IMG/VR virus record: IMGVR_UViG_3300037756_000021
Coordinates: 1 to 34,762 of that record
Direction: 5' to 3' (one strand)
Source: a virus
Lineage: Duplodnaviria > Caudoviricetes
DNA: 34,762 bases
Of this stretch, positions 2,375 through 23,903 are shown piece by piece. Under the pieces are notes generated by a model. It searched no databases. It saw only the letters and a program-made list of their open reading frames with translations, and had not been told where the DNA came from. The position numbers and the translations under genes are program-made. How positions within the stretch are numbered: the first letter of the stretch is position 1; each line of letters opens with the position of its first letter.

Positions 2375-2393
2375 GTCGCCATACCTCCTTCGG

Positions 2394-4778: not shown

Positions 4779-5137
4779 CGCAAGGCCGCCTGGACGCGAC
4801 CGGCGGTCATGTCCGAGGGCCGCCAGACGACCGTCTCGAGGCCGGCAGCGGCGAGCGTCTGGAGGACAGCTACCTGGTCCGCGGTCAGCGGATCCCCGAT
4901 CTCGCGCTTGACCTCGACGGCCAACAATCGCCGCTTGCGGGGGTGCGCCAGGAACAGGTCCGGCCAGCCCTTGCCGAGCGGGCCCTCGACCGGCGTGCGC
5001 CAACCGCGTTGCGTCTGGGCGGGCCGGAAGTGGACCCATTGCCAGCCGTAGATGTGGGCGAGCTCCGCAATCTGCGCCTGGAACGCGGCGCCGGTCATCT
5101 TGCGATCGGCCTGCTCGGCCGGGGTCAGGCGGGTCAT
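4775..5137 (-). CDS. VRR-NUC (PD-(D/E)xK) nuclease, putative Holliday junction resolvase
   Basis: FQAQI...GWPDLFL...AVEVK...LTADQ...VWRP signature. Confidence 0.88.
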   Translation of the reverse strand: MTRLTPAEQADRKMTGAAFQAQIAELAHIYGWQWVHFRPAQTQRGWRTPVEGPLGKGWPDLFLAHPRKRRLLAVEVKREIGDPLTADQVAVLQTLAAAGLETVVWRPSDMTAGRVQAALR

Positions 5138-5790
5138 GTCGACGCCCCGGCAGGGTCGCCCGGATAGTCCAAGACCCGGAGGTTGATCTGATCCGGCTCA
5201 ACGCAAAGCTGTGCCTTGATGTAGCCACGGTTGGGCAGGCGCTGAAACGGCGATCGTCGGAAGGACGCGATCTCTGACCACCCGGCGACCACACCATGAC
5301 CACAGGTCCATGCATGACCCGCTTCGCACGTGTAGAACCCGAGATACCAATCGGGCTTGATTTGCCAGATGGCCCATGGCAGGAAGCCGTCACTGTGCGG
5401 TTGAACACACAACTGATCCCATGCGCCATCAGGCAGCGGCCAGCCCCGGTGTTGCCCGATCCCCACCGGCCAGATCAGTTCCCGTCGTGTGTACTTAGGA
5501 CGCCAAGCAGCTTCGATGGCCTGGAGATGCCGTACGGATCGCTGGAGTCGGGTCGGGATCGCTGCCGGGATAACGCCTTCGGGGAGCGAGATCAGTCCAG
5601 CACGCTTCCCGTTATTGCACTCCCGACAAGCCGTGACCAGGTTGGTTGCGTCGTCCGATCCGCCCAGCGATCGTGGCAGGACGTGATCGACCTCAAGGGC
5701 AACCTCGGGTGGCTTCCGTCCACAATATGCACACGTAAAGTTGTCCCGTTCGAGGACGCGGATCCGCAGCCAACCGCTCAGTTTGCCCAT
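5134..5790 (-). CDS. HNH endonuclease (McrA/HNH_5-like N-terminus)
   Basis: LRIRVLERDNFTCAYCG...VDHVLPRSLGG...NLVTACRECNNGK. ATG at 5790 (TGATG overlap). Confidence 0.9.
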   Translation of the reverse strand: MGKLSGWLRIRVLERDNFTCAYCGRKPPEVALEVDHVLPRSLGGSDDATNLVTACRECNNGKRAGLISLPEGVIPAAIPTRLQRSVRHLQAIEAAWRPKYTRRELIWPVGIGQHRGWPLPDGAWDQLCVQPHSDGFLPWAIWQIKPDWYLGFYTCEAGHAWTCGHGVVAGWSEIASFRRSPFQRLPNRGYIKAQLCVEPDQINLRVLDYPGDPAGAST

Positions 5791-5993
5791 CAGCAGGACC
5801 CTTTTGCTGACGGTTGCACGCTGACGCTTGCACCTATATATCCGTGCAAGCGTGCAAGCGTGGACATTTGAGCACGAATGGATGCATGTACGCTCTCGCC
5901 TTGGAAGGCGGCGATAGCGGCCACGGTTGCACGGTTGCAGATGATTGCGTGCAAGCGTGTGCAAGCGTGCAAGCGTGCATAGATATGCGTCAT
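5790..5993 (-). CDS. 67-aa ORF running through the iteron array (possibly a coupling bridge only)
   Basis: ATGA overlap with the helicase stop and TGATG overlap with the HNH start; low-complexity ARLH repeats. Confidence 0.4.
   Translation of the reverse strand: MTHIYARLHACTRLHAIICNRATVAAIAAFQGESVHASIRAQMSTLARLHGYIGASVSVQPSAKGSC
5811..5981. repeat. Iteron-like array, about 10 copies of (C)GTGCAA(G/C) in two inverted clusters; putative replication origin
   Basis: CGCTTGCAC-CTATATATCC-GTGCAAGCG inverted repeat (5825-5852); tandem CGTGCAAG at 5843, 5851, 5948, 5966; CGGTTGCA at 5811, 5924, 5932. Lies immediately downstream of the helicase gene. Confidence 0.75.
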
Positions 5994-7120
5994 GCGGTCA
6001 CATCCAAAGGTGGTGTCCACTGGGCCGGAATGGACCAGTAGCGATGGCTGTGGGTCCGGCCTGTCTTGACGTATTCCGTCCGCATCCGACCCATGTTCAG
6101 GAGCTGTTCGATCCGCTTTCGCGGGTCCCGCTTCCACAGTCCGGCCAGATCAGCACGGCTCAACCCGTCACCATCCGTGGGCACGTCGGCCAGGTCTGCA
6201 TCGAGCTCGGCCAGCGCATCGGCCTTGTCCTCCAGCCGGTACGACATGCTGCTGCGCTCGAACGACAGCACGTAGCGTTCGGGCAGGATCACGCGACCCT
6301 GTACGTCGAGCCAGCGGTCGTCGCTGCCTGGCCTGACCCGCGACAGCTCGGCTGCAATGTCAACGGTCGCCAGGATCGCGCCAGAGCCACGGATAGCCTC
6401 GCCGTGCTCGCCGCCGGCCTTGCGGGCGTGGTGGACGAGCACGACGGCCATGTCGGTCGCCTGTGCCAGTGACGTCACACGAGCAACGGCCTTGCTCGCC
6501 TCACTCGCGTCGTTTTCGTTCTGGATCTCGGCCCAGATGGCGAGCGTGTCAATGAACACGAGGCCACCGGGGTTGGATCGCGCCCACTCCGCGATCGCGT
6601 TGAGCACCTGCGGAAACGACAGGCCGGCCATGATCGCTGACCGTCGATCGAGCACCTGGAGCCGGTGCATGTCGTTCGTCTTGTGGACGACGGCTACGCC
6701 GCCCTCCTCCGTCACGAGCAGGACCGGGCCCATCTGCACCGGCCACGAGCCGAGGAAGTCGTCGCCCGTCTCGCAACATCGTTGGAGCTGGGCGGCGAGC
6801 GTGCTTTTGCCGGCCTTCGGGGATCCTGCAACCAGCGTCACGCCGCCGCTGTACGCGATCGGCTTGCAGCGCCATGGGATCGTCGTCGGGACGCTGCCCC
6901 GGTAGAGGTCGATGTCCACGATCAGGTTGGGGTAAAGCTTCATCAGCTCGACCTCGGCCGGCGGCTCCGGTTCCGTATCCGGCGCTGGGCCCGATCCGTT
7001 CGCCGCGCGCTGCACGTAGGCATCCATCGGGTCGACCGTTCGCAGGTTGCGTGGGTCGGCGTCCACATCCTCGAGCCCCCACTGGGCTCGCTGCGCCTGC
7101 TGCTCCGGTGTCCATGTCAC
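5990..7120 (-). CDS. RecA-fold AAA ATPase / RepA-like replicative helicase (AAA_25-like)
   Basis: Walker A GSPKAGKST, Walker B LVFIDT, LVHHARK and RGSGAI motifs; possible C-terminal winged HTH. Confidence 0.88.
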   Translation of the reverse strand: MTWTPEQQAQRAQWGLEDVDADPRNLRTVDPMDAYVQRAANGSGPAPDTEPEPPAEVELMKLYPNLIVDIDLYRGSVPTTIPWRCKPIAYSGGVTLVAGSPKAGKSTLAAQLQRCCETGDDFLGSWPVQMGPVLLVTEEGGVAVVHKTNDMHRLQVLDRRSAIMAGLSFPQVLNAIAEWARSNPGGLVFIDTLAIWAEIQNENDASEASKAVARVTSLAQATDMAVVLVHHARKAGGEHGEAIRGSGAILATVDIAAELSRVRPGSDDRWLDVQGRVILPERYVLSFERSSMSYRLEDKADALAELDADLADVPTDGDGLSRADLAGLWKRDPRKRIEQLLNMGRMRTEYVKTGRTHSHRYWSIPAQWTPPLDVTA

Positions 7121-7338
7121 GCCGCCGTCGCCCGTCTGACGGGCTGCGCCCCGGCGATCGCCTTCGTGATCTGTTCGTCGGTCATGTCGTTACTCGTATC
7201 GCGTGGCGGTTCGTTTGGTGGGGCCGTCCAGCGCCCCTGCTCCCGTAGCTCCCAAATGCTCAGGAGCGGCACGCGGGACGGCCCGGTATACGGAAGCGTC
7301 AGCGGGTCAAAACCCGAGCTCGTCACCGCCTGTCGCAA
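7117..7338 (-). CDS. Hypothetical protein (start uncertain)
   Basis: Fills the gap and its stop overlaps the helicase GTG. Confidence 0.45.
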   Translation of the reverse strand: MRQAVTSSGFDPLTLPYTGPSRVPLLSIWELREQGRWTAPPNEPPRDTSNDMTDEQITKAIAGAQPVRRATAA

Positions 7339-7819
7339 CTCCGGCCAGCGGTGGCGTGGCCGGCGCTCCCGCGAACTCGCCGGGCTGGGTGACGGGTGCC
7401 GCTACGGCAGCCGGCGGCGACGCGGGCTTGCGCACGGGCGGGACCACGTTAGCGACCTTGCTGTAGCCGGCCTCGTTGATCTCGACCGTGACGAAGCACT
7501 CTCGCCCGACCGCCTGCTTGCGTAAATCCGCGAGCCCGATCTTCTCGTCGAGCGCGCGCCCGAGCAGGGCCGTTACCCATGCCCGCATCTTCGAGCGCGG
7601 TCCCGTCGCCAGCGACGTGACGCCATCGAGCACGAGGGCCAGTCCGGGGACCTCGGGGTCCTCGAGGCCGTCGAGCGAGAAGTCCCAGCGAAGCAGCATC
7701 TTGGCGTCGGCCGTGCCCTCGTTGATCTGGAACGGCTCGATCCCCGTCAGCATCGCCGGATAGGTCGCTGGTTCCGCCTTGGGGATCGGCTTGCCAAAGT
7801 TCAGTTCCATGTCAGTCAT
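7307..7819 (-). CDS. Putative ssDNA-binding protein (DUF669/OB-like)
   Basis: ATYPAML...LRWDF...VGRECFVTVE...YSKVANV, then an Ala/Pro linker and acidic-aromatic tail DELGF. Adjacent to YqaJ. Confidence 0.65.
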   Translation of the reverse strand: MTDMELNFGKPIPKAEPATYPAMLTGIEPFQINEGTADAKMLLRWDFSLDGLEDPEVPGLALVLDGVTSLATGPRSKMRAWVTALLGRALDEKIGLADLRKQAVGRECFVTVEINEAGYSKVANVVPPVRKPASPPAAVAAPVTQPGEFAGAPATPPLAGVATGGDELGF

Positions 7820-7839
7820 CGTTCGCGTTTCCTTTCTCG

Positions 7840-8442
7840 CTACCCTGCAAAGTCCAGGAACAGCTCGGCCGGTGCCGCCGGTTCGGGACGGATCCCCGTC
7901 AGGATGTGGTCGCGCCAGAAGGCATCGACCTTGGTGAGCATCCGGTCCTCCATGTCCGGCTCGCGCTCCAACAGGAATGTCCGCAGACCGGCGCCCACGA
8001 GGACGCATACGGCAGCGGTGTTGCGGTTGGTGCAGGCCATCTGGGCGCGCACCTGTGCCTCAACGTGAAGTGGCAGCGGGCCGCGAATGGGCCACATCTC
8101 AGGACGACCAGACAGCTTGATCTCGACGAGGCCCGGTGGCTCGCCGAGTACGAGGTAGTCCGGCGTCGCGCATAGACGGACTCTCTTGTGAACGTACGTC
8201 TTGCTGTTGGCACGCAGACGCAGACCCAGTCGTCGTGCAGCCAGTGCGGCGATGGCTGGTTCCATAGCCGTGCCCGTTTCCATGTACTCGTTCACGTCCC
8301 GCGTCAGCGCGAACGGTGAACAGAGTCGATCCCAAATGCCTTCGGGGGTTATGTATGGATGCGGCCCGAGCAAAGCGCCAACCTCTGAGGCCGTGACGTT
8401 TTCCGACCGGATCGCGTCGTTTCGCGGGTTAAGCGGCGGCAC
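7840..8442 (-). CDS. YqaJ/lambda-exonuclease family recombination nuclease
   Basis: VTASEVGALLG, G...EPAI, ATPD, VEIK, QVRAQM motifs. Confidence 0.9.
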   Translation of the reverse strand: MPPLNPRNDAIRSENVTASEVGALLGPHPYITPEGIWDRLCSPFALTRDVNEYMETGTAMEPAIAALAARRLGLRLRANSKTYVHKRVRLCATPDYLVLGEPPGLVEIKLSGRPEMWPIRGPLPLHVEAQVRAQMACTNRNTAAVCVLVGAGLRTFLLEREPDMEDRMLTKVDAFWRDHILTGIRPEPAAPAELFLDFAG

Positions 8443-9001
8443 GTCGGCGTCCTCCCAGCCATCGCTTCCATTCGATCACCAGGCGGTTGCGCTTCGATGC
8501 GTTGCATCGCGCACAGGACGCCGCCAGGTTGCCTATCGCATGGCGACCGCCACGAGATAGCGGGATGACATGCTCGACCTCATCCGCCTTGGCGCCGCAG
8601 TAGATGCACGGTTGCGTCAGGATCTTGGCGAGGTCGCGTGCGGTGACCTGATGTGTCGTGGCGGCCTTCCGCTGTGCGGTTCGCTGCGCCTGTCGGAGTC
8701 GTGCAGACAACATCGCGGTAGGCCGCTGTTTGTAGGCCCTTCCGTAGGTGCGTCTGTACTCTCGATGGCGTTCGCGTTGCGCAAGGGCGACAGCCTGTCC
8801 TTCGGCGGTGGCACGTCGCTTGGCAGCCACTTCGCGGACGCGCGCGCGGTTGCCCGGATCGAGCCGATTGGCAGCTCGACGCCTGTTCGCGTCGATGCGT
8901 CGACAGGCATCGCTACACTTGACGCCACGACCTTGGCCCATGTATGCGCCGCCGCAAACGCGACAGGAACGCGCGGTCACCGGATGGAAGTCAGGCATCA
9001 T
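8429..9001 (-). CDS. HNH endonuclease with N-terminal Zn finger
   Basis: CRVCG...CSDAC N-terminus; CIYCG...EHVIPLSRGG...NLAASCARCNASK. Confidence 0.9.
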   Translation of the reverse strand: MMPDFHPVTARSCRVCGGAYMGQGRGVKCSDACRRIDANRRRAANRLDPGNRARVREVAAKRRATAEGQAVALAQRERHREYRRTYGRAYKQRPTAMLSARLRQAQRTAQRKAATTHQVTARDLAKILTQPCIYCGAKADEVEHVIPLSRGGRHAIGNLAASCARCNASKRNRLVIEWKRWLGGRRRAAA

Positions 9002-9237
9002 CGCCCCTCCTCTAGCCGCCGCACGCACTCCGGGCAGCGCGACAGCATTGGCCAGGCGTGCCGCTCCGCGATCGCCGCGTTGCCGCACAGGTAGTGGGTG
9101 CGCGCCACCGCACCGCGCCCCGGCAGCAGGTGGCCGATCTTGTCGGGGCCGGCCCTGAATGACATGCCGGGCGGAAGGCGCAGCGGCTTCTGCGGCTGCG
9201 GCCCGCCCCAGAGCTGGTCTGGCGTGATGGGGGTCAC
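8998..9237 (-). CDS. Zn-finger microprotein (H...LCG...CPEC)
   Basis: Coupled ORF with GTG at 9237. Confidence 0.65.
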   Translation of the reverse strand: MTPITPDQLWGGPQPQKPLRLPPGMSFRAGPDKIGHLLPGRGAVARTHYLCGNAAIAERHAWPMLSRCPECVRRLEEGR

Positions 9238-9464
9238 CGCAGGCCGGCCCGTTCCGCCCACTGGACGTGGATCGCCGTTGCGTTATGCCGGCTGACCGCT
9301 TCAATGATCTGCCGTTCGCCGTCGGCTGCCGTGATCCAGCCGCCGCACGCGCATGGTTCGCGCCGGATCGGAGCGAGCTGGCAGCAGCAGGGGTAGTGGC
9401 GACAGTCCGCGCAGACGCCGTTCGGGATGAGCGGATGCGGCTGGTAGGCCGGCGCTACCGTCAC
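9234..9464 (-). CDS. Cys/His-rich microprotein
   Basis: CADC..CCC..CACG..HN..H; GTGA coupling. Confidence 0.65.
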   Translation of the reverse strand: MTVAPAYQPHPLIPNGVCADCRHYPCCCQLAPIRREPCACGGWITAADGERQIIEAVSRHNATAIHVQWAERAGLR

Positions 9465-9673
9465 CGGAACGCCCTCCGTATCGCATGCATCAGCTCGGGC
9501 CACTCCCGAACCCCGGCCATATCCAAGTCGGCCCGCGCCAGCGCCAGCGCCTGCCTCAGCTCGCGCTCGGCCCGGTACGAGGCCCGGTGTTCGGCGTAGG
9601 CGGCGTCGAACTCCTCACGACAGCGGATGCAGTGCGGGTCCTGGCGTTCGTCGTGGGTGGCGTGGGGGGTCAT
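9461..9673 (-). CDS. Hypothetical protein (H..H..HCIRC plus coiled coil)
   Basis: ATGA coupling. Confidence 0.65.
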   Translation of the reverse strand: MTPHATHDERQDPHCIRCREEFDAAYAEHRASYRAERELRQALALARADLDMAGVREWPELMHAIRRAFR

Positions 9674-9873
9674 GCGGGGATCTTGCTCGGCTGGAGCCAC
9701 ACGCCCCTCGGCGGCCAGATATACGGACCGGGGTAACGGTCAAGGACCGCAAGGGCGCACGGTTCGCACCACCGCTCGCGCCGCTTCTCCAAGCCATAGT
9801 CGCTGCCGTGTCCGTGGAACACCCGCACGTTGATAACAGCCGGCCGGTGGCGGCAGATCTCGCAGCGGATCAC
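9670..9873 (-). CDS. Zn-finger microprotein (CEIC...CEPC)
   Basis: GTGA coupling. Confidence 0.65.
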   Translation of the reverse strand: MIRCEICRHRPAVINVRVFHGHGSDYGLEKRRERWCEPCALAVLDRYPGPYIWPPRGVWLQPSKIPA

Positions 9874-10139
9874 CGGATCGCCTGCGCTTCGGCGTTGCTC
9901 TGCCAGTCGTGCCACGCGAGCCCCTGCGTAACGGCGTCCTCTCGCTCGACCGTCTCCCGCGCCAGCCGCCGCGCCGTCCGCCGTATCGCCAGCAGGGCCA
10001 ACAGCTCCGTCCTGCGGTTGTGACGGGCCGGCGTCCAGGTGGCGCGCATCCAGCGGCGGTCGCGTTTCTCCTGTTCCCAGAGGGCGTGGGCACGGGTTTC
10101 GAGGGTGATGGCTATGGCTTGGGCTTCGATGGGGGTCAT
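9870..10139 (-). CDS. Hypothetical protein
   Basis: Coupled ORF. Confidence 0.65.
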   Translation of the reverse strand: MTPIEAQAIAITLETRAHALWEQEKRDRRWMRATWTPARHNRRTELLALLAIRRTARRLARETVEREDAVTQGLAWHDWQSNAEAQAIR

Positions 10140-10393
10140 GTCGACAGCTCAGGCGCGGGGACCACGATCTTCTGAGGCTCGCGCATGATCACCTCGCCGC
10201 AGCGACGGCAATACAGAAACTCGGGTCGGCCGTCCGGCGAGTAGGCATCCGTGAAGTCGTGCGCACCGTTCTCATCGGTGTTTGCGAACCGACATCGGTT
10301 TACGTCTGCCATTTGGTGCCCAGTCCTTTCATGTGCCCAAGGGATCGAAGCCGGCGAGCGCTGGGCACAGCCACCCGCCGGCCTGAGGGTCAA
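10136..10393 (-). CDS. Zn-binding microprotein (C...HDF...CRRCG); start may be ATG 10312
   Basis: AAAGGA upstream of the internal ATG; Cys/His motif. Confidence 0.6.
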   Translation of the reverse strand: MTLRPAGGCAQRSPASIPWAHERTGHQMADVNRCRFANTDENGAHDFTDAYSPDGRPEFLYCRRCGEVIMREPQKIVVPAPELST

Positions 10394-10605
10394 CCCGCGC
10401 CGGGCAGGGGGGATTGCGCGACCGGCGACCCAGAGGGCCGGCGAGGCTCCACGTCTCGGCTCGCGGCTCCCCAGAAGCCGGCCAAGTCAGGAACGTCGCC
10501 GGCCCTCTTAGGCGTCGGGCGCTTGCGGTTCGCTTGCCACTGATCGACGACCGCGCAGATCGCGCACGAGGCGTCGTGGGGCCAAGTGGTATCGGGTTTC
10601 GTCAT
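10390..10605 (-). CDS. Hypothetical protein (HDASCAIC)
   Basis: ATGA coupling. Confidence 0.55.
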   Translation of the reverse strand: MTKPDTTWPHDASCAICAVVDQWQANRKRPTPKRAGDVPDLAGFWGAASRDVEPRRPSGSPVAQSPLPGAG

Positions 10606-10805
10606 GCCCGCACCACGTCGTGATGCTGTCCTGGAATGAGCGTGATCTCCCAGCCATAGGCGTCGCGGGCGATGCGCCACTTCGGCGCGTCAAACTGGCG
10701 ATTGCGTGGGTAGGGCAGGATCTCCGTGATCCGGTGCGGCTTGCCTAGGAACAGGAGGTCGTCGCCGACGCGGATTCGGCCCGCCGGAACGGTCAGGGCC
10801 GTCAT
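10602..10805 (-). CDS. Small beta-barrel-like hypothetical protein
   Basis: VPAGRIRVGDDL motif; coupled ORF. Confidence 0.65.
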   Translation of the reverse strand: MTALTVPAGRIRVGDDLLFLGKPHRITEILPYPRNRQFDAPKWRIARDAYGWEITLIPGQHHDVVRA

Positions 10806-10957
10806 CGCTCGTCTTCCCGGAAGTGCCGTCGCTCAACGGGGTGCGCCATGCGGTCCCAGAACGGGTTGGAACGCGGCCATTCGTGCCGGACCCATGCCGC
10901 GAGCGCGACGAAGAAGCCGGTGAGCATGGCGACGAGCAGGAGGTCGATGGGCGTCAT
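10802..10957 (-). CDS. Small membrane protein
   Basis: MTPIDLLLVAMLTGFFVALAAWV; ATGA coupling. Confidence 0.65.
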   Translation of the reverse strand: MTPIDLLLVAMLTGFFVALAAWVRHEWPRSNPFWDRMAHPVERRHFREDER

Positions 10958-11121
10958 CGCGCCGCCCTCAGAACCAGCCATACCCCCACAACCGCGACCG
11001 CGATCAGCGCCACGGTGCCGAGGCCCAGGAGCATGAGCGGACGCCAGTTGGCGGTGCCGGCGGCGCAGGCGATGATCGCCTCGGCGGCTTCGAGGGAGGT
11101 CGGAGCGGTGAGGCAGTTCAT
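10954..11121 (-). CDS. Small membrane protein
   Basis: C-terminal TM LMLLGLGTVALIAVAVVGVWLVL; ATGA coupling. Confidence 0.65.
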   Translation of the reverse strand: MNCLTAPTSLEAAEAIIACAAGTANWRPLMLLGLGTVALIAVAVVGVWLVLRAAR

Positions 11122-11252
11122 GCGGGGTACGTCGCCCGCATGGCTCGGAGTTGTGCGACGATGACGACGTTGCGCGTGGCCTGCATCTGCTCGGCCACGA
11201 CGCGGCGGGCATACAGCCAGCGGAGGAGGACGCCGAGCGTGGTGTGGCTCAT
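11118..11252 (-). CDS. 44-aa hypothetical protein
   Basis: ATGA coupling on both sides. Confidence 0.55.
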   Translation of the reverse strand: MSHTTLGVLLRWLYARRVVAEQMQATRNVVIVAQLRAMRATYPA

Positions 11253-11827
11253 GCCGCGGCCTCGGCAGACTCGGGGCGCTGGACGTTCCCTTCGTCGGGC
11301 TCGATCCATCGCTTGCCGTTGACGATGTTGCTGATGAGGGCCTGCGACACGCCGTAGGTGCGGGCCAGTGGCCCTTGTCCGGTGCCCTGAGCCCACGCGG
11401 CACGGATCGCGCGTACCTGATCCCAGTCCAGGCCGCGCTTGCCGAGACGACCTTTGCGTCCGGCGTCCTGCAAGTTCTCCTGGTGCGTGGCGGCAAACAG
11501 GCCGGCAGGATTGCAGCACGGCGGGTTATCGCAGGTGTGGCAAACCTCTAGGCTGCGGTCGAAGTCGGGGTGGACGAGCCGGTATGCCTCGCGGTGCGCC
11601 TTGCGCGTCCAGCCGAAGTAGCCCTGCCCGTATCCGGCGGTGTCTCGACCGCCTGGTCCGACGTACGGCCAGCAGGCATCTGGCCCGCCCGACTGGTCCA
11701 CGAACCGCCAGAACGGCGCAGACATAAACAGAGCATTCGGAAGCGGCTGAGAGTGGACCAGCGTACCTTCGTGCGCGATCCGACCGTTACATAACTGCAT
11801 ATTATCGGAAGTAATAGATAGGCTCAC
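11249..11827 (-). CDS. HNH homing-type endonuclease with C-terminal HTH (true start may be ATG 11725)
   Basis: FWRFVD...DACW...GYG...AHR...VCHTCDNPPCCNP...THQEN; C-terminal QGPLARTYGVSQALISNIVNGKRW. Confidence 0.88.
   Translation of the reverse strand: MSLSITSDNMQLCNGRIAHEGTLVHSQPLPNALFMSAPFWRFVDQSGGPDACWPYVGPGGRDTAGYGQGYFGWTRKAHREAYRLVHPDFDRSLEVCHTCDNPPCCNPAGLFAATHQENLQDAGRKGRLGKRGLDWDQVRAIRAAWAQGTGQGPLARTYGVSQALISNIVNGKRWIEPDEGNVQRPESAEAAA
11717..11744 (-). other. Second, degenerate dif-like site: GCTTCCGAATG-CTCTGT-TTATGTCTGCG
   Basis: Shares CTTCCGA and TTATGT with the first site, has a 6-bp spacer, same orientation, offset by 68 bp. Confidence 0.4.
11784..11812 (-). other. dif-like XerC/XerD recombination site: ACTTCCGATAA-TATGCAG-TTATGTAACGG
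   Basis: 11-bp arms with inner TAA/TTA symmetry and the TTATGT XerD core, in an AT-rich island. Resembles B. subtilis dif (ACTTCCTAGAA-TATATA-TTATGTAAACT) but has a 7-bp spacer. Confidence 0.7.
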
Positions 11828-12012
11828 GCTACCTCCGGCTTCGGGGTCAGAGCCTCTACGATCAGGCGCGCCTCATCGGGTGTGGGCATGACGCCGCGCT
11901 CAATGATCGACAGCCGGCCCCGGTTGATCCCGGTCAGCTTCGAGAGCACGCGGATGCTGAGCCCGCTGGAGCGGCGAAGTTGACGGAATGGGGTTGTGCT
12001 GGGGGTATCCAT
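11824..12012 (-). CDS. Cro-like XRE-family HTH regulator
   Basis: FRQLRRSSGLSIRVLSKLTGINRGRLSIIERG; first gene of the early operon. Confidence 0.88.
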   Translation of the reverse strand: MDTPSTTPFRQLRRSSGLSIRVLSKLTGINRGRLSIIERGVMPTPDEARLIVEALTPKPEVA

Positions 12013-12040
12013 TGACGTAACCGTAGCACTCGGTTATACC
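12012..12040 (+). promoter_or_regulatory. Candidate divergent promoter TTGACG-N17-TATACC
   Basis: Correct spacing; points to the RBS and small ORF at 12061-12142. The -10 lacks the final T. Confidence 0.45.
12018..12036. promoter_or_regulatory. Operator-like palindrome TAACCG-N7-CGGTTA
   Basis: Perfect 6-bp arms overlapping both promoters, flanked by TTGAC (12012) and GTCAA (12044). Confidence 0.6.
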
Positions 12041-12048
12041 TGTGTCAA
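12020..12048 (-). promoter_or_regulatory. Early sigma70-type promoter TTGACA-N17-(TGc)TACGGT giving a probably leaderless cro mRNA
   Basis: Consensus -35 at 12043-12048, extended -10 at 12020-12025, ATG 7 nt downstream, no RBS. Confidence 0.75.
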
Positions 12049-12070
12049 CAGCAATCTTGCGGAGGTACCG

Positions 12071-12142
12071 ATGACAGATGGACAGCGCCACGGCGGTGAG
12101 TCGGCCCGCGTCCCGGTTCGCGTCCGGCAACAGGCACCATGA
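12071..12142 (+). CDS. 23-aa plus-strand ORF (MTDGQRHGGESARVPVRVRQQAP)
   Basis: GGAGG at 12061-12065, 5 nt before the ATG, downstream of the candidate divergent promoter. Confidence 0.4.
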   Translation: MTDGQRHGGESARVPVRVRQQAP

Positions 12143-12204
12143 CGGCTTGAGCGTATCGTGATTAGGAATGGTTGACGTGTCCAGTAGGGCGGATGCCCTA
12201 ACGC

Positions 12205-12230
12205 AAAAAGCCGCCCCCGAAGGGGCGGGC
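12205..12230 (-). terminator. Rho-independent terminator ending the late operon
   Basis: Minus strand GCCCGCCCC-TTCG-GGGGCGGC-TTTTT; a second small hairpin TAGGGC-GGAT-GCCCTA at 12185-12200. Confidence 0.85.
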
Positions 12231-12262
12231 AATCTGCTGCGCTTCGCGCTGTTGTGCGTGGG

Positions 12263-13558
12263 TCAGCCGCCGTCCACGATGAGGTCAGCGGCCCAGGTCA
12301 GCGAGGCGTCGGCCGCAGTCGTATAGGTCGACACGTCGTGCCAGATCAGGAGGCTCCGCGTCCCGCCCTGGATCGGATGCGGACGCACGATCCTGGTCGC
12401 GCCTGTCTCGAGCACCTGCGTAACCGCCCACGTTCCGCTGAACGCCCAGCGTTCGATCGACCACGTACCCGAGTCCTCGCGCGACAGGTAGACGATGCCG
12501 CCGGTCGTGTTGCGCGGGAACATGACCCCGCCGTTGTAGTGGATGGTGGCGATGTAGCCGAAGGTCACGCCCGCCGCGACGATCGAGGTCGAGACCCACG
12601 AACTGCCGTTCCAGACGGTGCGGTAGTAGATCGTGTTCGTGTCCGAGGTCCAGTCGCCGTACGCGATCTCTGGGTCTGGCCCGTCCCCGATATCGAACAG
12701 GCGCGCGTTGTGCCCGCCCGCGGTGTCGGTGTCGACCGCCTTGTCGAGCGCCGTCACCACCAGCGGGAGGTTCGTTCCATCCTTGACGTTGCCCAGCACG
12801 GACCCGGCGAGGTTGAGGATGTCCCCCGTGTCGAGCTCGATCTCGCAGTAGTAGATGTCGTGGATCGAGGATGAGGTCGGGTGGCCGGTCAGCGCCACGC
12901 GCAGCTTCGTCGGATCGGAGGCGATCGGGACCGTCCCGATGTAACCCTGCTCGCCGGACCCGAAGTCGAACACCCGGCGGATCGTCTCGTTCGTGTCGAA
13001 CCAATCATCGGACCAGACATCGACCCAGTAGCGGGAACTCTCGCGGACGAACACATGGATCTCGTCCGTCCCAGGTCGGCGCCATGACTGCGCGTAGGTC
13101 GTCACACCTGACAGGGTGATCGTCTCGTCGGGCGTCACCAGCGACGTGATGTCCCCGATCACGGTGCCCTTACGGACGCGCAGCAGGCTGTCCTGGTTAT
13201 GCCGGCAGTAGAAGACGATCGGCACCTTGTCGGTCTCGATCACGAGCGCCGCCGCGTTGTGGTCGTCGGATTCGGCGGTTATCAGGAGCCGTGTCGTCAC
13301 GTCGTCGTGATCGTCCACTGCGACTGAATACACCCGGCCCTGTCCGCTCGACTGGACGCCCGAGATGTTCACCCGCCCGCCCGACTCGACCGCCTTGGGG
13401 ATGACCCACCACGACGCCATGAAGTCGTCGATCCGCACGTCGCTGAGGTCGAGTTGGACGAAGCTGCCACCCCCGCCCATGAGCAGCCGGCGACCGAGGG
13501 TCACGGCCCCGATCGCCGCGAGTGCTGATCCGACGATGAATCGGCGCCGAGTGAACAC
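12263..13558 (-). CDS. BNR-4-repeat-like beta-propeller protein with twin-arginine signal
   Basis: N-terminus MFTRRRFIVGSALAAIGAVTLG; DDHNAAAL, TYAQ, Asp-box-like SDDWFDT and IYY motifs. Confidence 0.75.
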   Translation of the reverse strand: MFTRRRFIVGSALAAIGAVTLGRRLLMGGGGSFVQLDLSDVRIDDFMASWWVIPKAVESGGRVNISGVQSSGQGRVYSVAVDDHDDVTTRLLITAESDDHNAAALVIETDKVPIVFYCRHNQDSLLRVRKGTVIGDITSLVTPDETITLSGVTTYAQSWRRPGTDEIHVFVRESSRYWVDVWSDDWFDTNETIRRVFDFGSGEQGYIGTVPIASDPTKLRVALTGHPTSSSIHDIYYCEIELDTGDILNLAGSVLGNVKDGTNLPLVVTALDKAVDTDTAGGHNARLFDIGDGPDPEIAYGDWTSDTNTIYYRTVWNGSSWVSTSIVAAGVTFGYIATIHYNGGVMFPRNTTGGIVYLSREDSGTWSIERWAFSGTWAVTQVLETGATRIVRPHPIQGGTRSLLIWHDVSTYTTAADASLTWAADLIVDGG

Positions 13559-13583
13559 GCCGTGAGTTGTACCACGGCCGGAT

Positions 13584-14360
13584 TCACCGCAACTGCTTGA
13601 GCTTGAGCGTCGAGCCGATCTTGGTGACCGCCGATTCGCTGCCGGTCTGCGTGTTCTGAGCGAACTTGAAGTTCATCGTGAACGCCTGCGATGGTGCGAT
13701 TATCACGCCTTCGATGAGGATGAAGCGCACCGTCCCGCCCGACGTCCCGCCAGCCGCGATGTCGGTCAGGGCCGTCCCGCCCGAGATGCGAATACCAGTG
13801 GACACGAGCACGGCGTTGGCGGCGGTGTCCGAGCCGAGGTAGCGGTAGGCTGCCGAGAATGTCCCCGCCGACGCCACGAGGTTGCACTTGTAATCGCCCG
13901 CGAGCGTGGAATCGTAGAGCACCAGCAACTCGAACCGCCACACGTCAGTCGTCGCGCCGACCGCCCACAACAGCTCGGAATCGCTGGTCAGGACCGCCGA
14001 GTTCGTCACGGTGTCGTCGGACGCCTTGACGATGGTCGAGTCCCAGTCGGAACCGCCGGCCGCCGCGGCCCATGCAGCCGTCGTGCCATTCGACGTCAGG
14101 ACCTGGCCGGTCGTACCGATGGCGAGACGCGCCGCGGTATCCGCCCCTGTCCCCACCGCAATGTCACCGGCCGCATCCCAGATGGCATCGGTGGCGACGG
14201 AGCCTCCTCCCGCGCCACCAGACATCAGCGTCTCGGCGCCGGCATCATCCTTCGAGTACATAAGGCCGTCGGTCTTGGCGTAGACCGCGACCCGGCTCGC
14301 AGCGGGAGTCGCGGCGGCGGCGCCTTCGACATATGTGATCTTGGTGGTTTCAGTCGCCAT
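13584..14360 (-). CDS. Tail fibre / receptor-binding protein
   Basis: TPAASRVAVYAKTDG, AAGDIAVGTG..RLAIGTTGQVLTS fibre motifs and a C-terminal beta-sandwich; AGGAG RBS. Confidence 0.75.
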   Translation of the reverse strand: MATETTKITYVEGAAAATPAASRVAVYAKTDGLMYSKDDAGAETLMSGGAGGGSVATDAIWDAAGDIAVGTGADTAARLAIGTTGQVLTSNGTTAAWAAAAGGSDWDSTIVKASDDTVTNSAVLTSDSELLWAVGATTDVWRFELLVLYDSTLAGDYKCNLVASAGTFSAAYRYLGSDTAANAVLVSTGIRISGGTALTDIAAGGTSGGTVRFILIEGVIIAPSQAFTMNFKFAQNTQTGSESAVTKIGSTLKLKQLR

Positions 14361-14369
14361 CGTGTACTC

Positions 14370-16265
14370 CTATCCTGGTACCCAAACGTAGAGCCAGTCG
14401 TCGCCCGCGCCATTCTCAAGGGGCTCCGGCGGTCCTGATCCGACCATCAGCAGTTCGTAGTGGCCGATGTCCTCGATCGCCGACGCCGAGATCGTCGGAT
14501 TGGGATACGTCCCCGAGAGGTCCCCGCCAGCCGCGCCCGTGGGGGTACCGGGGATCGTGATCGTCTTCTCAGCCCCGGTCCCCGATGCTGTGACGCCGGC
14601 CCCTACGAAGTCGAGCGTGTCTGCGGCCGTGGCGAGGGGCGTGCCTTCGTCTTCGACGGTCAGCGACGAGCCGGTCCCGACCATGTTCCCGACCCAATCG
14701 TTCGTCGTGCCGGGGATGCGCTCGGTGACGACGCGGAAGGTGTTGCCCGTGGCGGGGAAGTCAGGAGTGACCCCGCCGTCCCACTGGAACGTCCCGCCCG
14801 TGGGCGTGAAGGTCGGCGTGAACGAGCCGCCGGATTCGGTCAGCCACCATTCGAGGGTCGAGCCGCCCGAACCGGTTGGGGCTGAGATGGTGATCGTGCA
14901 GTCCTGGTCGAGCGTTCCCGTGATGATGTTGCCGTCGGTCGGATCGACAGTCTCCGTGGCTCCCAGCGTGCCGCGGGCGTTGATCGTCTCCTGTCCGCCC
15001 TCGATCTTGGTGACGACCTCGGTATCAAGGGCGTACTGGCTGTGGTCATCGTCCGCCAGCCCCGACAGCGCGCCGTGATCGGTAATGCCGAGAACCGGCT
15101 CGGCCTCCATCAGCTCCCAGGTGCAGACGTACAGGTTCTCGCCCGGCCCCACGAGCTGCCAGTAGCGGAACGAGCCGGTCGAGGTCCATTCGTAGTCCAC
15201 GTCCTGCGCCGTGAACGAGCCCGTGGCGCTGAACGTCTCGGAGGCCACCGTCGCGGCATCGGAGAAGTCGGCCAGCGTTGCCGCCTGGATCTCATATGTC
15301 ACTGAGCCCGCGTTCTCGATTGAGAGTCGCAATCGCGACCGGGCGATGGCCTTGGCAACCGGCAGGACGACACGGGCCACGTCGGTTTCGGTATCGGGGA
15401 CGAACTCGCACGTCGTGTCGTCGGCGTCGTTGACCGCTGGCCCCGATACCCAGGTCGTCGCGGTGCCGACCGCGAACGCGATGGCCTGCCCGCCCCAGTC
15501 CCGGCCGGCCTCGCTGATCATGCCACCGACATCGAACGCGCCGCCCGGCGTATCGATGACGCGGTAGCCGACCCACGACAGCGGCCAGTTGCCCGTGACA
15601 CCAGCCTCCATGTCGAACAGCTCGGTCGAGTTGGCGTCGGGGGTCATCGACTGGGAACCGCTGTCCGAGGTGCGGACGATCGCGCCGCCGAGCATGAACA
15701 CCGGAACCGTGGGCGTGAGACTGACCGCGAACGCGTCGCCGTTCTGGTCGTTGAGCTCGGACGCAACGTCGAGCGCGCCCAGCCCCGACACCTCGACGAT
15801 GAACGCGATCGAGCCCTCGCCGGCGTCGAGCGGACATTCGATCGTGGCCGATTCGCTGGCACCGGCCACCTTGTAGAAGAAACCACCGTGGCCTGCCGAC
15901 GCGATACCTGCATCGACAACACCATCCGGGTGCGCCGTCCAGCCGGTGGGAGTCGTCGGGATCTCCGTATCGCGGACGGCGTGCCACAGGATCAGCGTGT
16001 TGCCTTCGACCGGAGCATCGTCAAGGACCACGATCGCGCTCGCGCCGCTTGACCGCGCCCAGGCCGACTGGACGACAAGGGCCTCCTCGACAGGGGGGGT
16101 CGGGACGGTGGCCTCGCCCTCTTCGGCTAGATCGATCTCGACCGGGTCCACGGGATCGCCACCGATGACCCCGATCCCGCCACCCTCGATCGGTCCGACG
16201 ACCGAGCCACCGAGGTTGATTGTGTCTCGGACAGGCGATGGAATCCCGAGCAGCGCCGTTTTCAC
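14370..16265 (-). CDS. Mosaic minor tail / fibre protein
   Basis: Acidic beta-rich modules; DHGALSGLADDDHSQY and EDEG..LDFVGAGVT fibre motifs; GTG 16265 overlaps the upstream stop. Confidence 0.75.
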   Translation of the reverse strand: MKTALLGIPSPVRDTINLGGSVVGPIEGGGIGVIGGDPVDPVEIDLAEEGEATVPTPPVEEALVVQSAWARSSGASAIVVLDDAPVEGNTLILWHAVRDTEIPTTPTGWTAHPDGVVDAGIASAGHGGFFYKVAGASESATIECPLDAGEGSIAFIVEVSGLGALDVASELNDQNGDAFAVSLTPTVPVFMLGGAIVRTSDSGSQSMTPDANSTELFDMEAGVTGNWPLSWVGYRVIDTPGGAFDVGGMISEAGRDWGGQAIAFAVGTATTWVSGPAVNDADDTTCEFVPDTETDVARVVLPVAKAIARSRLRLSIENAGSVTYEIQAATLADFSDAATVASETFSATGSFTAQDVDYEWTSTGSFRYWQLVGPGENLYVCTWELMEAEPVLGITDHGALSGLADDDHSQYALDTEVVTKIEGGQETINARGTLGATETVDPTDGNIITGTLDQDCTITISAPTGSGGSTLEWWLTESGGSFTPTFTPTGGTFQWDGGVTPDFPATGNTFRVVTERIPGTTNDWVGNMVGTGSSLTVEDEGTPLATAADTLDFVGAGVTASGTGAEKTITIPGTPTGAAGGDLSGTYPNPTISASAIEDIGHYELLMVGSGPPEPLENGAGDDWLYVWVPG

Positions 16266-18106
16266 GAGGCCACCCAATCCATCCCGGCGAAACCCCAGCC
16301 ATGGCCACACGCGGGTCCGTTGTCCCTGACCGCGACCCAGTGTGTGCAGAACTCTTGGCCGTGACTTGAGATGGGAATGACGACGTCCGTATCGGCCGCG
16401 AACGCCGTGGTGGAATCGAGGATCTCGGCAACGCCGTCGGCGTGGTAGAGCTTGGCGAGGAAGTTCTGGGCACCCTCAGTGTCCACCATATGGATCGTCA
16501 TGGTCCCGTCGCCCACCACGATCAATCGCAATTCGTTCTGGGCACAGTTACCAGCCTCGTCGACGGTCCCGATGCCGCCCGCCTGATAGGTCGCGAAGTG
16601 CCAGCTCCCCACGTGGCCTGGTGAGACGATCCGCGGGTAGGTGATGCCAGGGCGCAGATAGAGCACGTTGCCGTCGGTCGATGCGTTCGGCGTCTTGGTG
16701 GCCGTGTTACCACCGAGCGGGTAGAAACTCCCGGTCGGCGTCGGGGAGGGGCAACTGGGCGGGATGGGCCGCATCCACAACCTGTTGCCGAAGGTCGTCG
16801 GGCCGATCTGGCGGAGTTGCCGACGCATGATCCGCATGTCGGTGCCGCTCGAGTAGCCGGGCATCGAGCTCGCCGCGGTGTAGTTCGGCAAGTGGGTCGC
16901 CTTGAGCGGGATCCGCATCCCGTGCATGACGTCGTTGACCTGCGCCGCCTGGACGACGATCTCCGTCTCGACCTCGTCCTCGGGCTCGTCAAGCTCAGCG
17001 AGCAGGCGCTTGGCCCTGGTCTCGGCCTTGACCGCCGTCTTGACGTTCACGGCCGGCGCCGCCACGTCGCGGTAGACGTAGGTATCTCCAACCGTCGTGT
17101 CCTGGACGTACTTGTAACCGCCGTCGTAGGTCAGGTCCATGCCCGACACGGGGGAGCGCCCGCCGGCCCGAGAGAGGCGCGTGTCGTCGGAGATCGCGAA
17201 CACCGTCGAGCTGTCGATCTCCGTGGCATCGTTGGACAGTGACAGTGCCGAGACATACAGTTCGGAGTTCGATGGGAAGTAGCACAGGACGTAACGTCCG
17301 ACCGTCGTCGAGGTCCCGCCCGTCCCGCCCACCGTCACGTCGATCGGGATCGAATAGGTCGTCGACGTCAGGACGGTCACGACGTGCGTCCCGTTGATGT
17401 CGGGGGTTGAGCCTGTGTGCCCTGCGATGACGATGCTCATCCCCGAGGTCAGGCCATGCGCCGAGGTCGTCGTGATGACCGAAGGATCGGCGACAGAGGA
17501 CGACACGATGGCCCCGCCGACCGCCGCCGCCTCCGAGTACTTGATCCAGTAGTTCTTGCCCGACTGCTGCGACACGTCGGACATGACCTGTTCGGGCTTC
17601 TGGTGGAGGTAGTCGACCGCGTCCATGTCCACGGCCCCGGTCGTGTCGATGAACGCCTCATCCCGATCGACGGTGTTCATCTCCGTCGTGGTCAGCATCC
17701 AGCGGATGCGGGCGATATCCGTCTCAGCCGGTCGGTCGTTGTCCGTACCGACGAAGATGCGCCGCGAGAGCAGCGAGTTCTCGTCGGCCATCGTGACGAT
17801 CCACGTCCTCGATGTCGCGGACCAGGGGTCCATCCGAACTACGTCGAGGTCCACGATGAACCAGTTACCGACTACCTGATTACCGGCCGCCTCGGCATCC
17901 TGGACGCAGTAGATCCGGCGGTGCATGAGCATGACCAGATCACCGGCAGGGTCGTCCACGTTCAGCACGCCCTGCCAGCCGGATCCTTCCTCAGCGTGAG
18001 CGCCGACACCGATCGCCACGTTTTCGGGATCGCGAGGCAGCCGAACGCGGCCCGTGATCTCCAGCACCGTCGAGGCGTCCACGGAGTAGTACCAGCGGAG
18101 CGTCAT
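16262..18106 (-). CDS. Tail hub/Tal-like minor tail protein with inserted 'AHGL' (E1-FCCH-like) domain
   Basis: Directly after the tape measure gene; insert SVITTTSAHGLTSGMSIVIAG...INGTHVVT. Confidence 0.7.
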   Translation of the reverse strand: MTLRWYYSVDASTVLEITGRVRLPRDPENVAIGVGAHAEEGSGWQGVLNVDDPAGDLVMLMHRRIYCVQDAEAAGNQVVGNWFIVDLDVVRMDPWSATSRTWIVTMADENSLLSRRIFVGTDNDRPAETDIARIRWMLTTTEMNTVDRDEAFIDTTGAVDMDAVDYLHQKPEQVMSDVSQQSGKNYWIKYSEAAAVGGAIVSSSVADPSVITTTSAHGLTSGMSIVIAGHTGSTPDINGTHVVTVLTSTTYSIPIDVTVGGTGGTSTTVGRYVLCYFPSNSELYVSALSLSNDATEIDSSTVFAISDDTRLSRAGGRSPVSGMDLTYDGGYKYVQDTTVGDTYVYRDVAAPAVNVKTAVKAETRAKRLLAELDEPEDEVETEIVVQAAQVNDVMHGMRIPLKATHLPNYTAASSMPGYSSGTDMRIMRRQLRQIGPTTFGNRLWMRPIPPSCPSPTPTGSFYPLGGNTATKTPNASTDGNVLYLRPGITYPRIVSPGHVGSWHFATYQAGGIGTVDEAGNCAQNELRLIVVGDGTMTIHMVDTEGAQNFLAKLYHADGVAEILDSTTAFAADTDVVIPISSHGQEFCTHWVAVRDNGPACGHGWGFAGMDWVAS

Positions 18107-19992
18107 CCGAACTCCTCGACGAAAGACCCGCGCGACCCGGCCGGCTTGACGATCCGCCGCCGCTGGACGCTGGTCTTGATGTTGTCCGCCGCGGAGATCG
18201 TGACCCGTGTGGCGGGGATGCTGAGCCCCTTGATGGCCGCCACGATCCGGTTGGTGTCGTTCTCACGTTGCGTATGTGCGGAGAGCGCACTGGACATGGC
18301 GGCCGCCTTCGCCGCGTCGATTCCGGCGTTCGTCAGCTCGGCCGCGGCCGCGGCCTTGGCTTGGTCACGTGCGATGTTCCGTTGCAGCGTGGCCATCGCG
18401 GCGCCGTACAGATCCTTGGGCTGGCGCCCTGCCTTCTCTGCTCGGGCGATGATGGCCGCAAGCCGGGGGTCGTCCTCAAAAACGGGTTTCGGAGGCCCGA
18501 ACATTTCCGTGCCGGCCACGCCCTTTCCCGGCTTAGGCGGACCGAGCATCTCGCTGCCCGTTACGGCGTTGCGGAGCTTCGCTTGGCCTGACTCGTAGTC
18601 AGCCTTCGTTGGGGCCTTACCGAGATGCAGGACCACTTGACGCTGGTAGGCTGCGTCGGACTCGTAGTACTTGATTGCCGCGATCTCGGCCGCGGTCAGG
18701 TTAGCGGCCTGTCCCTTGAGTTGCTGACTCCGGTTGAACTGCGGGGACGCAAGGATGGCGGCGGCGCTGATGGCCGCAGACGCCGCGAGGATGCCGGCGC
18801 CTGCCAAAGCCGCGCCGCCGACGCCTGCGCCTGCCGCTCCAGCGACTGCGGGCAGGCCGCCCCCGGCCCCATTGACCACGCCCGCGTTGATGTTGACCAC
18901 GCCCGCGTTCATGCCGAGCACGCCCTTGATGAGCCCTTTGCCCAGCTCCCCGACGATCCCGCCCAGTGCCCCGCCCGTCAGCTTGTTCAGGCCCCAGCCC
19001 GAGACGACCGCGATCTTCACCCAATCGGGCATGGACATGAACGCGGATACGATGGTCCCGGCTGCCCCGGCGGCGACGCTTAGCCCATCGCCGATTGCCT
19101 TGAAGTCGATCGTCTCGATGAAGTCCATTGCGTCGGACGCTGCACGCCCGAGCCCCTGCCCGAGTTCCTCGATTGCGGCGATGACGGCTGGATCGGCGAG
19201 CTTCGTCGAAAGCCACTTGCCCATGCGCTCCAGGACCGGCAGGACCCCGCGGGCGATGGACTGGGACAGATCCTCACCCACGTCCTGCAGACGGCGCCAC
19301 GTCGCTTCTGGGCCGGTTCCAGCCGCTTTCGCAGCGTTGCCGAACTCGACCTCCAATTCCTTGAGGATGATCGTCTGTGCGCCGAAGATATCGCCTGACT
19401 TCTGGAGAGCCTTGATCTGCTTTTCCTGCTCCTTCGTAAATGCCACGCCGACCTTGCGGAGCGCGGTCATTCCCTTCGTCGGATCGTTGAGTGCCTTGCC
19501 GAGCTGGATCGCCGACGCCTTGAGGTCGACCTGTTCGACATTGCCGCCGGCCATCGCAACGGCCATGTTCAGCGCGGCCTTCGTCGCGTCCGGGAACACC
19601 TTGGCGCCGATGTTGGTGAACGTCAGGAGCATGTTTGCCCCGTCCTGGATCACCTTGTCGTCGACGGTCGAGAGTTTCTCCAGTTCCTCGGACAGACCGC
19701 GGATCGACTTTGTCGTCTGGCCGGCTGCCCCCCCGGTCGAGGCGATGACCGCCGCCGTCTGCGCTTCGGTTCTCGCAAGGTCGGCGAGCGAGCGCACCCC
19801 CATTGCAACCGCGCCGGCAATACCCACCCCGACCGCCAGCCCGATCCGGGTCAGGTTCTGGGTCAGGTTCGTGAGGGCCTTCCCGCCCAGCCGACTGAGC
19901 CGACCGATCGACGAGTCGACCTTGCCGATATCCTTCGCAGCCTGGAGCGCACCCTTGGCTCGGACGAGGATGCCGAGCTCACGTTCAGCCAT
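18103..19992 (-). CDS. Tape measure protein (629 aa)
   Basis: Ala/Gly-rich helical protein with LGKALNDPTKGMTALRKVGV motif; follows the chaperones. Confidence 0.92.
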   Translation of the reverse strand: MAERELGILVRAKGALQAAKDIGKVDSSIGRLSRLGGKALTNLTQNLTRIGLAVGVGIAGAVAMGVRSLADLARTEAQTAAVIASTGGAAGQTTKSIRGLSEELEKLSTVDDKVIQDGANMLLTFTNIGAKVFPDATKAALNMAVAMAGGNVEQVDLKASAIQLGKALNDPTKGMTALRKVGVAFTKEQEKQIKALQKSGDIFGAQTIILKELEVEFGNAAKAAGTGPEATWRRLQDVGEDLSQSIARGVLPVLERMGKWLSTKLADPAVIAAIEELGQGLGRAASDAMDFIETIDFKAIGDGLSVAAGAAGTIVSAFMSMPDWVKIAVVSGWGLNKLTGGALGGIVGELGKGLIKGVLGMNAGVVNINAGVVNGAGGGLPAVAGAAGAGVGGAALAGAGILAASAAISAAAILASPQFNRSQQLKGQAANLTAAEIAAIKYYESDAAYQRQVVLHLGKAPTKADYESGQAKLRNAVTGSEMLGPPKPGKGVAGTEMFGPPKPVFEDDPRLAAIIARAEKAGRQPKDLYGAAMATLQRNIARDQAKAAAAAELTNAGIDAAKAAAMSSALSAHTQRENDTNRIVAAIKGLSIPATRVTISAADNIKTSVQRRRIVKPAGSRGSFVEEFG

Positions 19993-21704: not shown

Positions 21705-21706
21705 GA

Positions 21707-23901: not shown

Positions 23902-23903
23902 AG

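Follow-up and report, generated by a model that had tools for sequence, protein, structure and literature searches.

Results

Genome and gene map around the locus

The stretch of DNA analysed here (the window, 34,762 nucleotides) is a complete phage genome. The record is a full circle, with a 35-nt terminal repeat (DTR, 100% complete), and carries genes for terminase, portal, a protease-capsid fusion, neck, tape measure, an AAA_25 helicase and a YqaJ nuclease. The fusion joins the prohead protease and the major capsid protein in one 594-aa ORF (24912-26696). Five free-standing HNH or endonuclease VII genes are present, at 837-1592, 5134-5964, 8429-9304, 11249-11827 and 21707-22210. The main features are:

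1..34762, minus strand for all annotated genes: complete circularly permuted siphovirus-type genome, 66% GC
12211..12228, minus strand: intrinsic-terminator-like hairpin closing the tail operon ahead of the early promoter
12013..12048, minus strand: candidate early promoter, leaderless, read by eye
11824..12012, minus strand: 62-aa XRE-family HTH gene, the first early gene (Pfam HTH_3, E 1e-7; phrog_3 repressor, E 2e-4)
11249..11827, minus strand: HNH endonuclease gene, HNH_3 with a C-terminal HTH (Pfam/PHROGs)

Along the minus strand the order is tail genes, hairpin, candidate promoter, XRE gene, HNH ORF and then all other early genes. The candidate promoter has a perfect -35 (12048-12043), a 17-nt gap and a weak -10 (12025-12020), with the start codon 7 nt further on. 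The consensus promoter scanner called no promoter at 12013-12048; the same -35/17/-10 design is also found before the first early genes of two other phages, G421 and G426, described below. The candidate operator for XRE is an inverted repeat of 6 bp (12036-12031 / 12023-12018) that overlaps with the -10. The XRE gene is the only repressor/Cro-like gene found, and there is no divergent cI/cro switch.

The HNH ORF opens with a GTG at 11827 that overlaps the XRE stop, and its frame reads through two dif-like sites, which we call site 1 and site 2. Further in-frame ATGs lie at 11800, within the spacer of site 1, and at 11725. Translated in this frame, site 1 gives T-S-D-N-M-Q-L-C. Residues 1-33 of the protein are predicted to be disordered (from a shallow alignment of 27 rows), and a fold search with the protein returned no significant match, the best being I-HmuI (E 0.055). 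Apart from the XRE HTH and the HNH-HTH genes, the Pfam scan shows no other family beside site 1.

In terms of recombination genes, an earlier note made from the sequence had reported no recognisable recombinase. Profile searches agree: in six frames they find no tyrosine recombinase, resolvase, serine-integrase domain or ParA, with controls positive each time. Among the 63 ORFs scanned against Pfam and PHROGs there is likewise no recombinase, and no ParB, replication-initiator or toxin-antitoxin family.

A dif mimic in frame at the start of the HNH gene

Site 1 is a 29-bp dif mimic read on the minus strand from 11812 to 11784:

11784..11812, minus strand: site 1, dif mimic and candidate attP, from its arms and host-matrix score
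11812-11802, minus strand: XerC arm, identical to the commonest host arm
11801-11795, minus strand: spacer, 7 bp, ending AG as in most host spacers
11794-11784, minus strand: XerD arm, 11 bp

This layout of dif-like arms around a 7-bp spacer is the one given by the earlier note, and its coordinates are borne out exactly. In both its XerC arm and its inner XerD arm the site is identical to the Limnocylindria chromosomal dif. The AT-rich patch noted previously is also real, since site 1 overlaps the most AT-rich 29-mer of this 66% GC genome (21/29 A/T, the next best having 18). The core pattern occurs once in the whole genome and matches in none of 100 shuffles. With an arm matrix built from 29 host dif sites, site 1 scores 34.7 bits. 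Host dif sites range from 32.8 to 43.9, and the best of 30 block shuffles reaches 15.6.

The site lies 11 bp downstream of the XRE-HTH stop. It had been placed just after the cro-like gene, which is correct, but that description overlooked that it lies inside the HNH ORF and is not intergenic.

The spacer has 7 bp, as against 6 bp in all 131 host sites, which were found with a search that allowed 5 to 8. For this reason site 1 is best read, from its sequence, as a mobile-element variant of dif and not as a chromosomal dif. A second assembly (a Logan contig, perhaps from the same reads) shows no difference to the phage over 5000-20000, so the seventh base is no error of a single assembler. The first spacer base, T, is common to 25 of the 82 distinct host spacers, and the first three letters are matched by 0 of 131, so the dif of the phage's true host is absent from the sampled sites.

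As for the outer XerD arm, the earlier note took its degeneracy as a sign of regulation. This does not hold: positions 24-28 are equally variable in the 82 distinct host sites, ten of which share the phage's first 9 letters. Since host sites vary as much, the phage arm is not specially degenerate.

The host and its chromosomal dif

Phage-type arms gave 131 matches in 125 of 401 genomes of the class, with none for a reversed-pattern control. In all four genomes with both on one contig, the motif sits 49-54% of the contig away from dnaA. Because it lies opposite dnaA in every testable genome, the class motif is the chromosomal dif. Strong XerC/XerD-like genes number two in three of five class genomes and one in the other two.

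Several proteins point in the same direction as the site. Among the 120 matches listed for the AAA_25 helicase, two are named Ca. Limnocylindrales. The gene at 20679-21704, taken as tail tube by its position and with no family match, has homologs in two Chloroflexi MAGs and one Acidimicrobiales MAG, and one on a 265-kb contig of a class genome. Ca. Limnocylindrales is also the name of some members of the DnaA clusters from genomes in G018's class. Taking proteins and site together, the host is very likely a member of Chloroflexota, class Limnocylindria, a call made at class level only. The XerC arm alone does not name a host, and it is found at 108 viral loci of 26-69% GC. The earlier suggestion that the site could point to the host, with Chloroflexota as one candidate, is supported. 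Limnocylindria are common in sediments and fresh water. A literature search, with subscription journals outside its coverage, found no phage study on this class.

Conservation in the HNH clade

We then consider the translated site in related proteins. Next to the window's own protein, the ten nearest of the best 120 matches in the HNH search start without exception with the translated site, and one distant match (P0359) fits the pattern too. The motif is absent from 372 other proteins, and an all-protein HMM search gave no further carriers. In a tree of 27 core domains built without the leader, the 11 carriers and P0252 form a clade with 100/99 support, so that 11 of its 12 members start with the translated 7-bp site. 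The DNA of the site was seen for two of the 11 carriers (the window and G426), and the 7-bp register of the other nine is deduced from protein.

The arm variants of the carriers (T-S, T-A, T-T and P-S, with S, A or T as second residue and P as first residue in one case) mirror arm variants of the host. Four members (P0247-P0250) have a changed XerC arm, with back-translation scores of 6.8-14.5 as compared with 20.7-26.1 for the others; these changes may represent decay.

The leucine codon in site 1 is TTA, used for none of the 517 Leu codons in the 18 main genes, and its ACT accounts for 23 of the 610 Thr codons there. Furthermore, the 25 residues past the motif vary freely among the HNH proteins and the motif does not. 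Since rare TTA and ACT codons are kept and the encoded leader is predicted to be unfolded, the constraint on the translated leader acts on the DNA.

The second genome, G426 (40.7 kb, 99% complete), has no tyrosine integrase and is otherwise little similar to the window phage. It carries a 7-bp-spacer site with different spacer letters, which follows an HTH stop and lies inside the orthologous HNH gene (59% identity). No other common start codon stands ahead of the nuclease core of that gene. In both genomes 17 positions, the XerC arm and the inner XerD arm, fit the host consensus, and the flanks have diverged. No close ortholog of the HNH gene was found in the 401 host-class genomes.

In a sister HNH clade (P0253-P0280) the leader is about as long but differs in sequence and is partly conserved (e.g. 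V-R-V-D-P). This leader may encode another DNA site.

A second dif-like site

A further site, overlooked previously, lies downstream in the same ORF:

11717..11744, minus strand: site 2, dif-like but decayed, 6-bp spacer; candidate relic or accessory site for XerCD binding

Site 2 (11744-11717) has a host-consensus XerD arm and a 6-bp spacer, and follows site 1 by 68 bp in the same orientation. It is the highest 6-bp-spacer score genome-wide, at about 10.6 in the window and 0.4 in G426, where it lies at 78 bp. Taken alone it falls within the genome-wide shuffle range (about 10.7, with shuffles up to 15.6). What gives it weight is where it lies and its being conserved in two reading frames, not its score. 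All 11 carriers of site 1 have a recognisable site 2, with two different reading frames represented, and in every one of them it is decayed. The spacing between the sites is 68 bp in five proteins and 78 bp in six, values about one helical turn apart. A role as an accessory XerCD-binding site is speculative.

Sites 1 and 2 are direct repeats. Ten inverted repeats were found in 11650-12300, and none includes site 1.

dif mimics in other phages

Besides G426, three GC-rich viral genomes resemble the window phage in this respect: G017, G421 and G422, the last two being partial records. All four are siphovirus-type (67-72% GC) with a dif mimic that adjoins an XRE-like gene, and neither they nor the window phage have a tyrosine integrase. 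The sites of G017, G421 and G422 have 6 bp in the spacer, and G017 and G422 lack a site-bearing HNH gene. In G422 the site is in frame within a gene coupled to the XRE stop, in G421 it lies upstream of the promoter, and in G017 it is reversed. Conservation in related phages, one of the checks that the earlier note proposed, is thus seen in that such sites are present in relatives. For viral contigs, single-protein queries came back near-empty and alignment queries were used instead.

A contrasting picture is seen with the three complete relatives found through the tail-tube gene, none of which has the site. One of them (G003) has an integrase, and the other two (G002 and G014) have neither. 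Because these complete relatives are without it, the dif mimic is, judging by the genomes compared, a lineage-specific module and not a family trait.

Two phage contigs in MAGs have dif-like sites near the terminase gene. More broadly, about 390 viral loci contain dif mimics, with 6- and 7-bp spacers and across many GC ranges, and the near-complete contigs among them G423, G428 and G430 have no tyrosine integrase. G017 (locus L167) and G422 (locus L336) are very small siphovirus-type genomes, that of G017 being a circle of 14.4 kb in which terminase, portal, capsid and tail genes are all present. In both, the XRE gene is followed by a 6-bp dif mimic with a spacer equal to a host spacer, and their hosts are likely Limnocylindria.

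Two candidates for prophage ends were rejected. G422 was considered as an attR, since it matches a host dif without a mismatch over spacer and XerD arm (24 nt), yet the DNA beyond is phage-like and not like dif flanks. The loci L375 and L380 of one viral contig, with the motif at both its ends, were considered as attL and attR and are actually a terminal repeat within coding sequence.

Search for an integrated copy

The earlier note proposed looking for related prophages at dif. None was found at 100 host dif flanks (100 of the 131 sites, about 10 kb per side, 1.8 Mb): no flank has structural or replication genes of the family, and none has a second strong site, in genomes that are mostly drafts and often break at dif. 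Portal genes occur in 12 of 126 host genomes, none of them beside the chromosomal dif. The sole run that holds the phage contains it as one free contig.

Several other leads were followed and dismissed. Run X2 holds a small share only (0.06) and gives no evidence. Those joints and loose ends of the phage contig that were shown are short chance matches. In G058 a prophage and dif share a contig but lie 2.16 Mb apart. Six genomes with several sites (G127, G130, G223, G329, G375 and G091) owe these to duplicated contig ends, small separate contigs of elements or phages, or repeats, and none has a prophage of the window clade at dif.

The assemblies themselves show an uneven pattern at dif. Six of the 131 host dif contigs end no more than 30 nt beyond the inner XerD arm, where 0.07-0.25 are expected. 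These ends lie 1-28 nt past the arm (G181, G313, G371, G329, G377 and G415), and none is so close on the XerC side. As this exceeds chance, it suggests that variable insertions at dif break assemblies in part of the population.

A number of other elements were observed near dif-like sites. At L131 (4459-6299) and L130, chromosomal DNA close to rpsB and a group II intron encodes a helicase 62% identical to the phage AAA_25, with a dif-like site some 600 bp away; this is possibly a small element integrated at dif. In G329, the near-identical dif-like sites at C4:5878 and C5:4808 (L327 and L328) adjoin, as annotated by eye, Rhs-like repeats with immunity-like genes, and may mark polymorphic toxin cassettes linked to Xer. 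In host MAGs, small contigs of phages or elements carry additional dif-like sites at G223:C11:4780 (L330), G091:C5:21317 (L332), G375:C54:923 (L325) and G130:C22:10233 (L323), with spacers that differ from the chromosomal dif of their own genome. Lastly, the AAA_25 cluster P0121 (92% identity) is on a 52.9-kb contig, longer than the phage genome, and this contig is a possible integrated close relative.

Discussion

Proposed mechanism and alternatives

We consider it moderately probable that site 1 is an attP, at which host XerC and XerD integrate this integrase-less phage into dif. The model for such a step is VGJphi. Its 29-bp attP has a 7-bp centre and undergoes one exchange by XerC, the resulting junction presumably being resolved by replication, and the gene next to attP encodes an HTH activator (PMC4246890, 10.64898/2026.06.12.731946). 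By analogy, the 7-bp spacer would block strand exchange by XerD, XerC would make a single exchange, and host replication would resolve the junction. With the crossover placed on the spacer's XerC side, one prophage end would regain a dif of 6 bp. On the gene map, that end would keep the early promoter together with XRE and the upstream HNH start codon, and the opposite end would hold the body of the HNH gene and the remaining early genes, left without a promoter. Lytic growth would in this way be shut off by integration and resume after excision. With the promoter separated in this manner, lysogeny could be explained with one small HTH protein and no cI/cro pair.

The evidence that we count for an attP is the identity with host arms and a score in the host range, the lack of a phage recombinase, the in-frame position after the XRE gene, the constraint on the DNA, the 7-bp register kept in the HNH clade, the dif mimics beside XRE-like genes in other phages without a tyrosine integrase and, indirectly, the contig breaks close to dif. 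Against it we count that no integrated copy was found, nor a close HNH ortholog in the 401 host genomes, that no host spacer opens with the phage's first three letters, that four clade members have a changed XerC arm, that the phage is one free contig in the only run with it, that there is no cI/cro switch, and that G002 and G014 have neither site nor integrase. As these two genomes are complete, the family can live without either. The in-frame site is equally compatible with the resolution of multimers. Of the two uses of host XerCD named by the earlier note, integration or multimer resolution, both remain the leading readings, and integration itself is not shown.

A serious alternative, though less probable than an attP, is that site 1 is a multimer-resolution site of the cer/psi type, where XerCD turn circular dimers into monomers during lytic theta replication or in an episomal carrier state. 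The HNH gene would stay intact, the reaction would regenerate the site, and site 2 could give directionality. This would suit a phage that was assembled as one free circle with no integrated copy found, the fixed spacing of the sites at 68 or 78 bp, about one helical turn apart, and the different placement and orientation in relatives (upstream of the promoter in G421, reversed in G017). Plasmid sites also have non-6-bp spacers and accessory sequences, cer having an 8-bp centre (PMC5357621). Other observations speak against it. ParA or another maintenance gene is absent, and a 7-bp centre is documented for an attP (10.64898/2026.06.12.731946). The host-like spacer ends are kept and would be needless for self-recombination, and the recurrent position at the junction of XRE and early genes has no obvious use in dimer resolution.

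The sites could also be a relic, an ancestral attP or captured dif annexed as a leader by a homing-endonuclease gene and no longer recombining. The five HNH or endonuclease VII genes of this genome would fit, as would the similar HNH and leader in the otherwise little similar G426, the changed XerC arms of four clade members and the decay of site 2 everywhere. We regard this as unlikely, given that 17 arm positions match the host consensus in the window and G426 with diverged flanks, that rare codons are retained, and that the motif is constant ahead of 25 residues that vary. Least probable, and very much so, are two readings taken jointly in which the site is bound or protected and not recombined. 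In one, bound XerCD would act as a roadblock and hold down expression of the HNH and early genes, for which the site is well placed, in the transcribed and translated path right after the first early gene. In the other, the HNH nuclease would cut 6-bp dif-type sites of the host or competing phages, its own genome being shielded by the extra base; in keeping with this, the relatives G017 and G422 have 6-bp sites and no such HNH gene. Two arms kept with a legal spacer fit recombination more simply, and nucleases of the I-HmuI type usually cleave alleles that lack their gene, close to the place of insertion, which also counts against this pair.

Returning to the attP reading, an extended form is that XerCD serve this clade of tailed phages of uncultured Chloroflexota as both integrase and lysis-lysogeny switch, with site 2 as a helically phased accessory. 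Integration at the VGJ-type attP in the HNH leader would disconnect the entire early operon, and a single small XRE protein would be enough for lysogeny, with no cI/cro/integrase module. Recombination may then be assisted by the HNH-HTH protein, whose synthesis would be confined to the circular form. We hold this extended form to be doubtful.

Relation to known Xer-borrowing elements

VGJphi is one of the closest known systems. Both it and the window phage have a single 29-bp dsDNA dif-like site with a 7-bp centre, no integrase and an adjoining HTH gene (XafV in VGJphi). The 7-bp spacer reported by the earlier note is real and phage-specific, but its novelty was overstated. VGJphi is a 7.5-kb filamentous ssDNA phage of Vibrio, whereas here the phage is a 34.7-kb tailed dsDNA phage of Chloroflexota, with its site in frame in an HNH gene and a second direct-repeat site; its integration and any activator are putative.

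The earlier note described Xer exploiters as mostly ssDNA phages or satellites, but dsDNA cases are published. The tailed LME-1 of Legionella borrows Xer via XerL (PMC9765430), and its repO is split on integration (PMC12407071). LME-1 is a T7-like podophage with the single recombinase XerL, a 22-bp site identical to dif and observed integration. The window phage differs in its siphovirus-type genes, a canonical XerC/XerD site, the 7-bp spacer, and HNH as the gene that would be split. The dif-type double jelly-roll prophages of Vibrio are dsDNA, tailless and Xer-borrowing (PMC12715192). Their lysogeny module is a repressor gene with a dif-like attP, and integrase-type and dif-type members exist in one family. 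Such coexistence is found here too, with G003 (integrase) alongside the window, G017 and G426 (dif mimics). They differ in being tailless, in a P15/XafT gene and in having been seen integrated in arrays.

Mycobacteriophage BPs has its attP within a reading frame, and integration alters expression (PMC4557955). BPs uses its own integrase and the cut activates its repressor; here host Xer would act and the XRE gene would remain uncut, with the genes downstream parted from their promoter. As in the cer/psi sites, there is an XerCD core site on a circular element with accessory DNA nearby. Unlike them, the site lies within a gene and there are no plasmid maintenance genes.

In the case of IMEX, this phage has no self-encoded recombinase, a dif-like candidate attP that matches host dif at class level, and a host class with XerC and XerD genes. 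CTXphi-type IMEX have two inverted dif-like sites that form an ssDNA hairpin. That layout is not the one found here, sites 1 and 2 being direct and not inverted.

In terms of novelty, the 7-bp attP design of VGJphi, Xer-borrowing dsDNA phages and the tailed LME-1 with XerL were already known. New here are the dif mimic in frame at the 5' end of an HNH gene, the translated site in 11 of 12 clade proteins and the second site downstream. A literature search that left subscription journals outside its coverage brought up no report of a tailed phage with a 7-bp XerCD site, of a tailed XerCD-type IMEX or of an attP inside an HNH gene.

Implications

Site 1 helps to point to the host class, Limnocylindria, and the translated motif at the start of HNH proteins can serve, at protein level, as a tag by which such sites are found in fragmentary metagenomes. 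If the attP reading is true, phages without integrase or partition genes that look lytic can be temperate via XerCD, and lifestyle predictors would misclassify them. An attP that is both coding sequence and operon disconnector would then be a minimal genetic switch.
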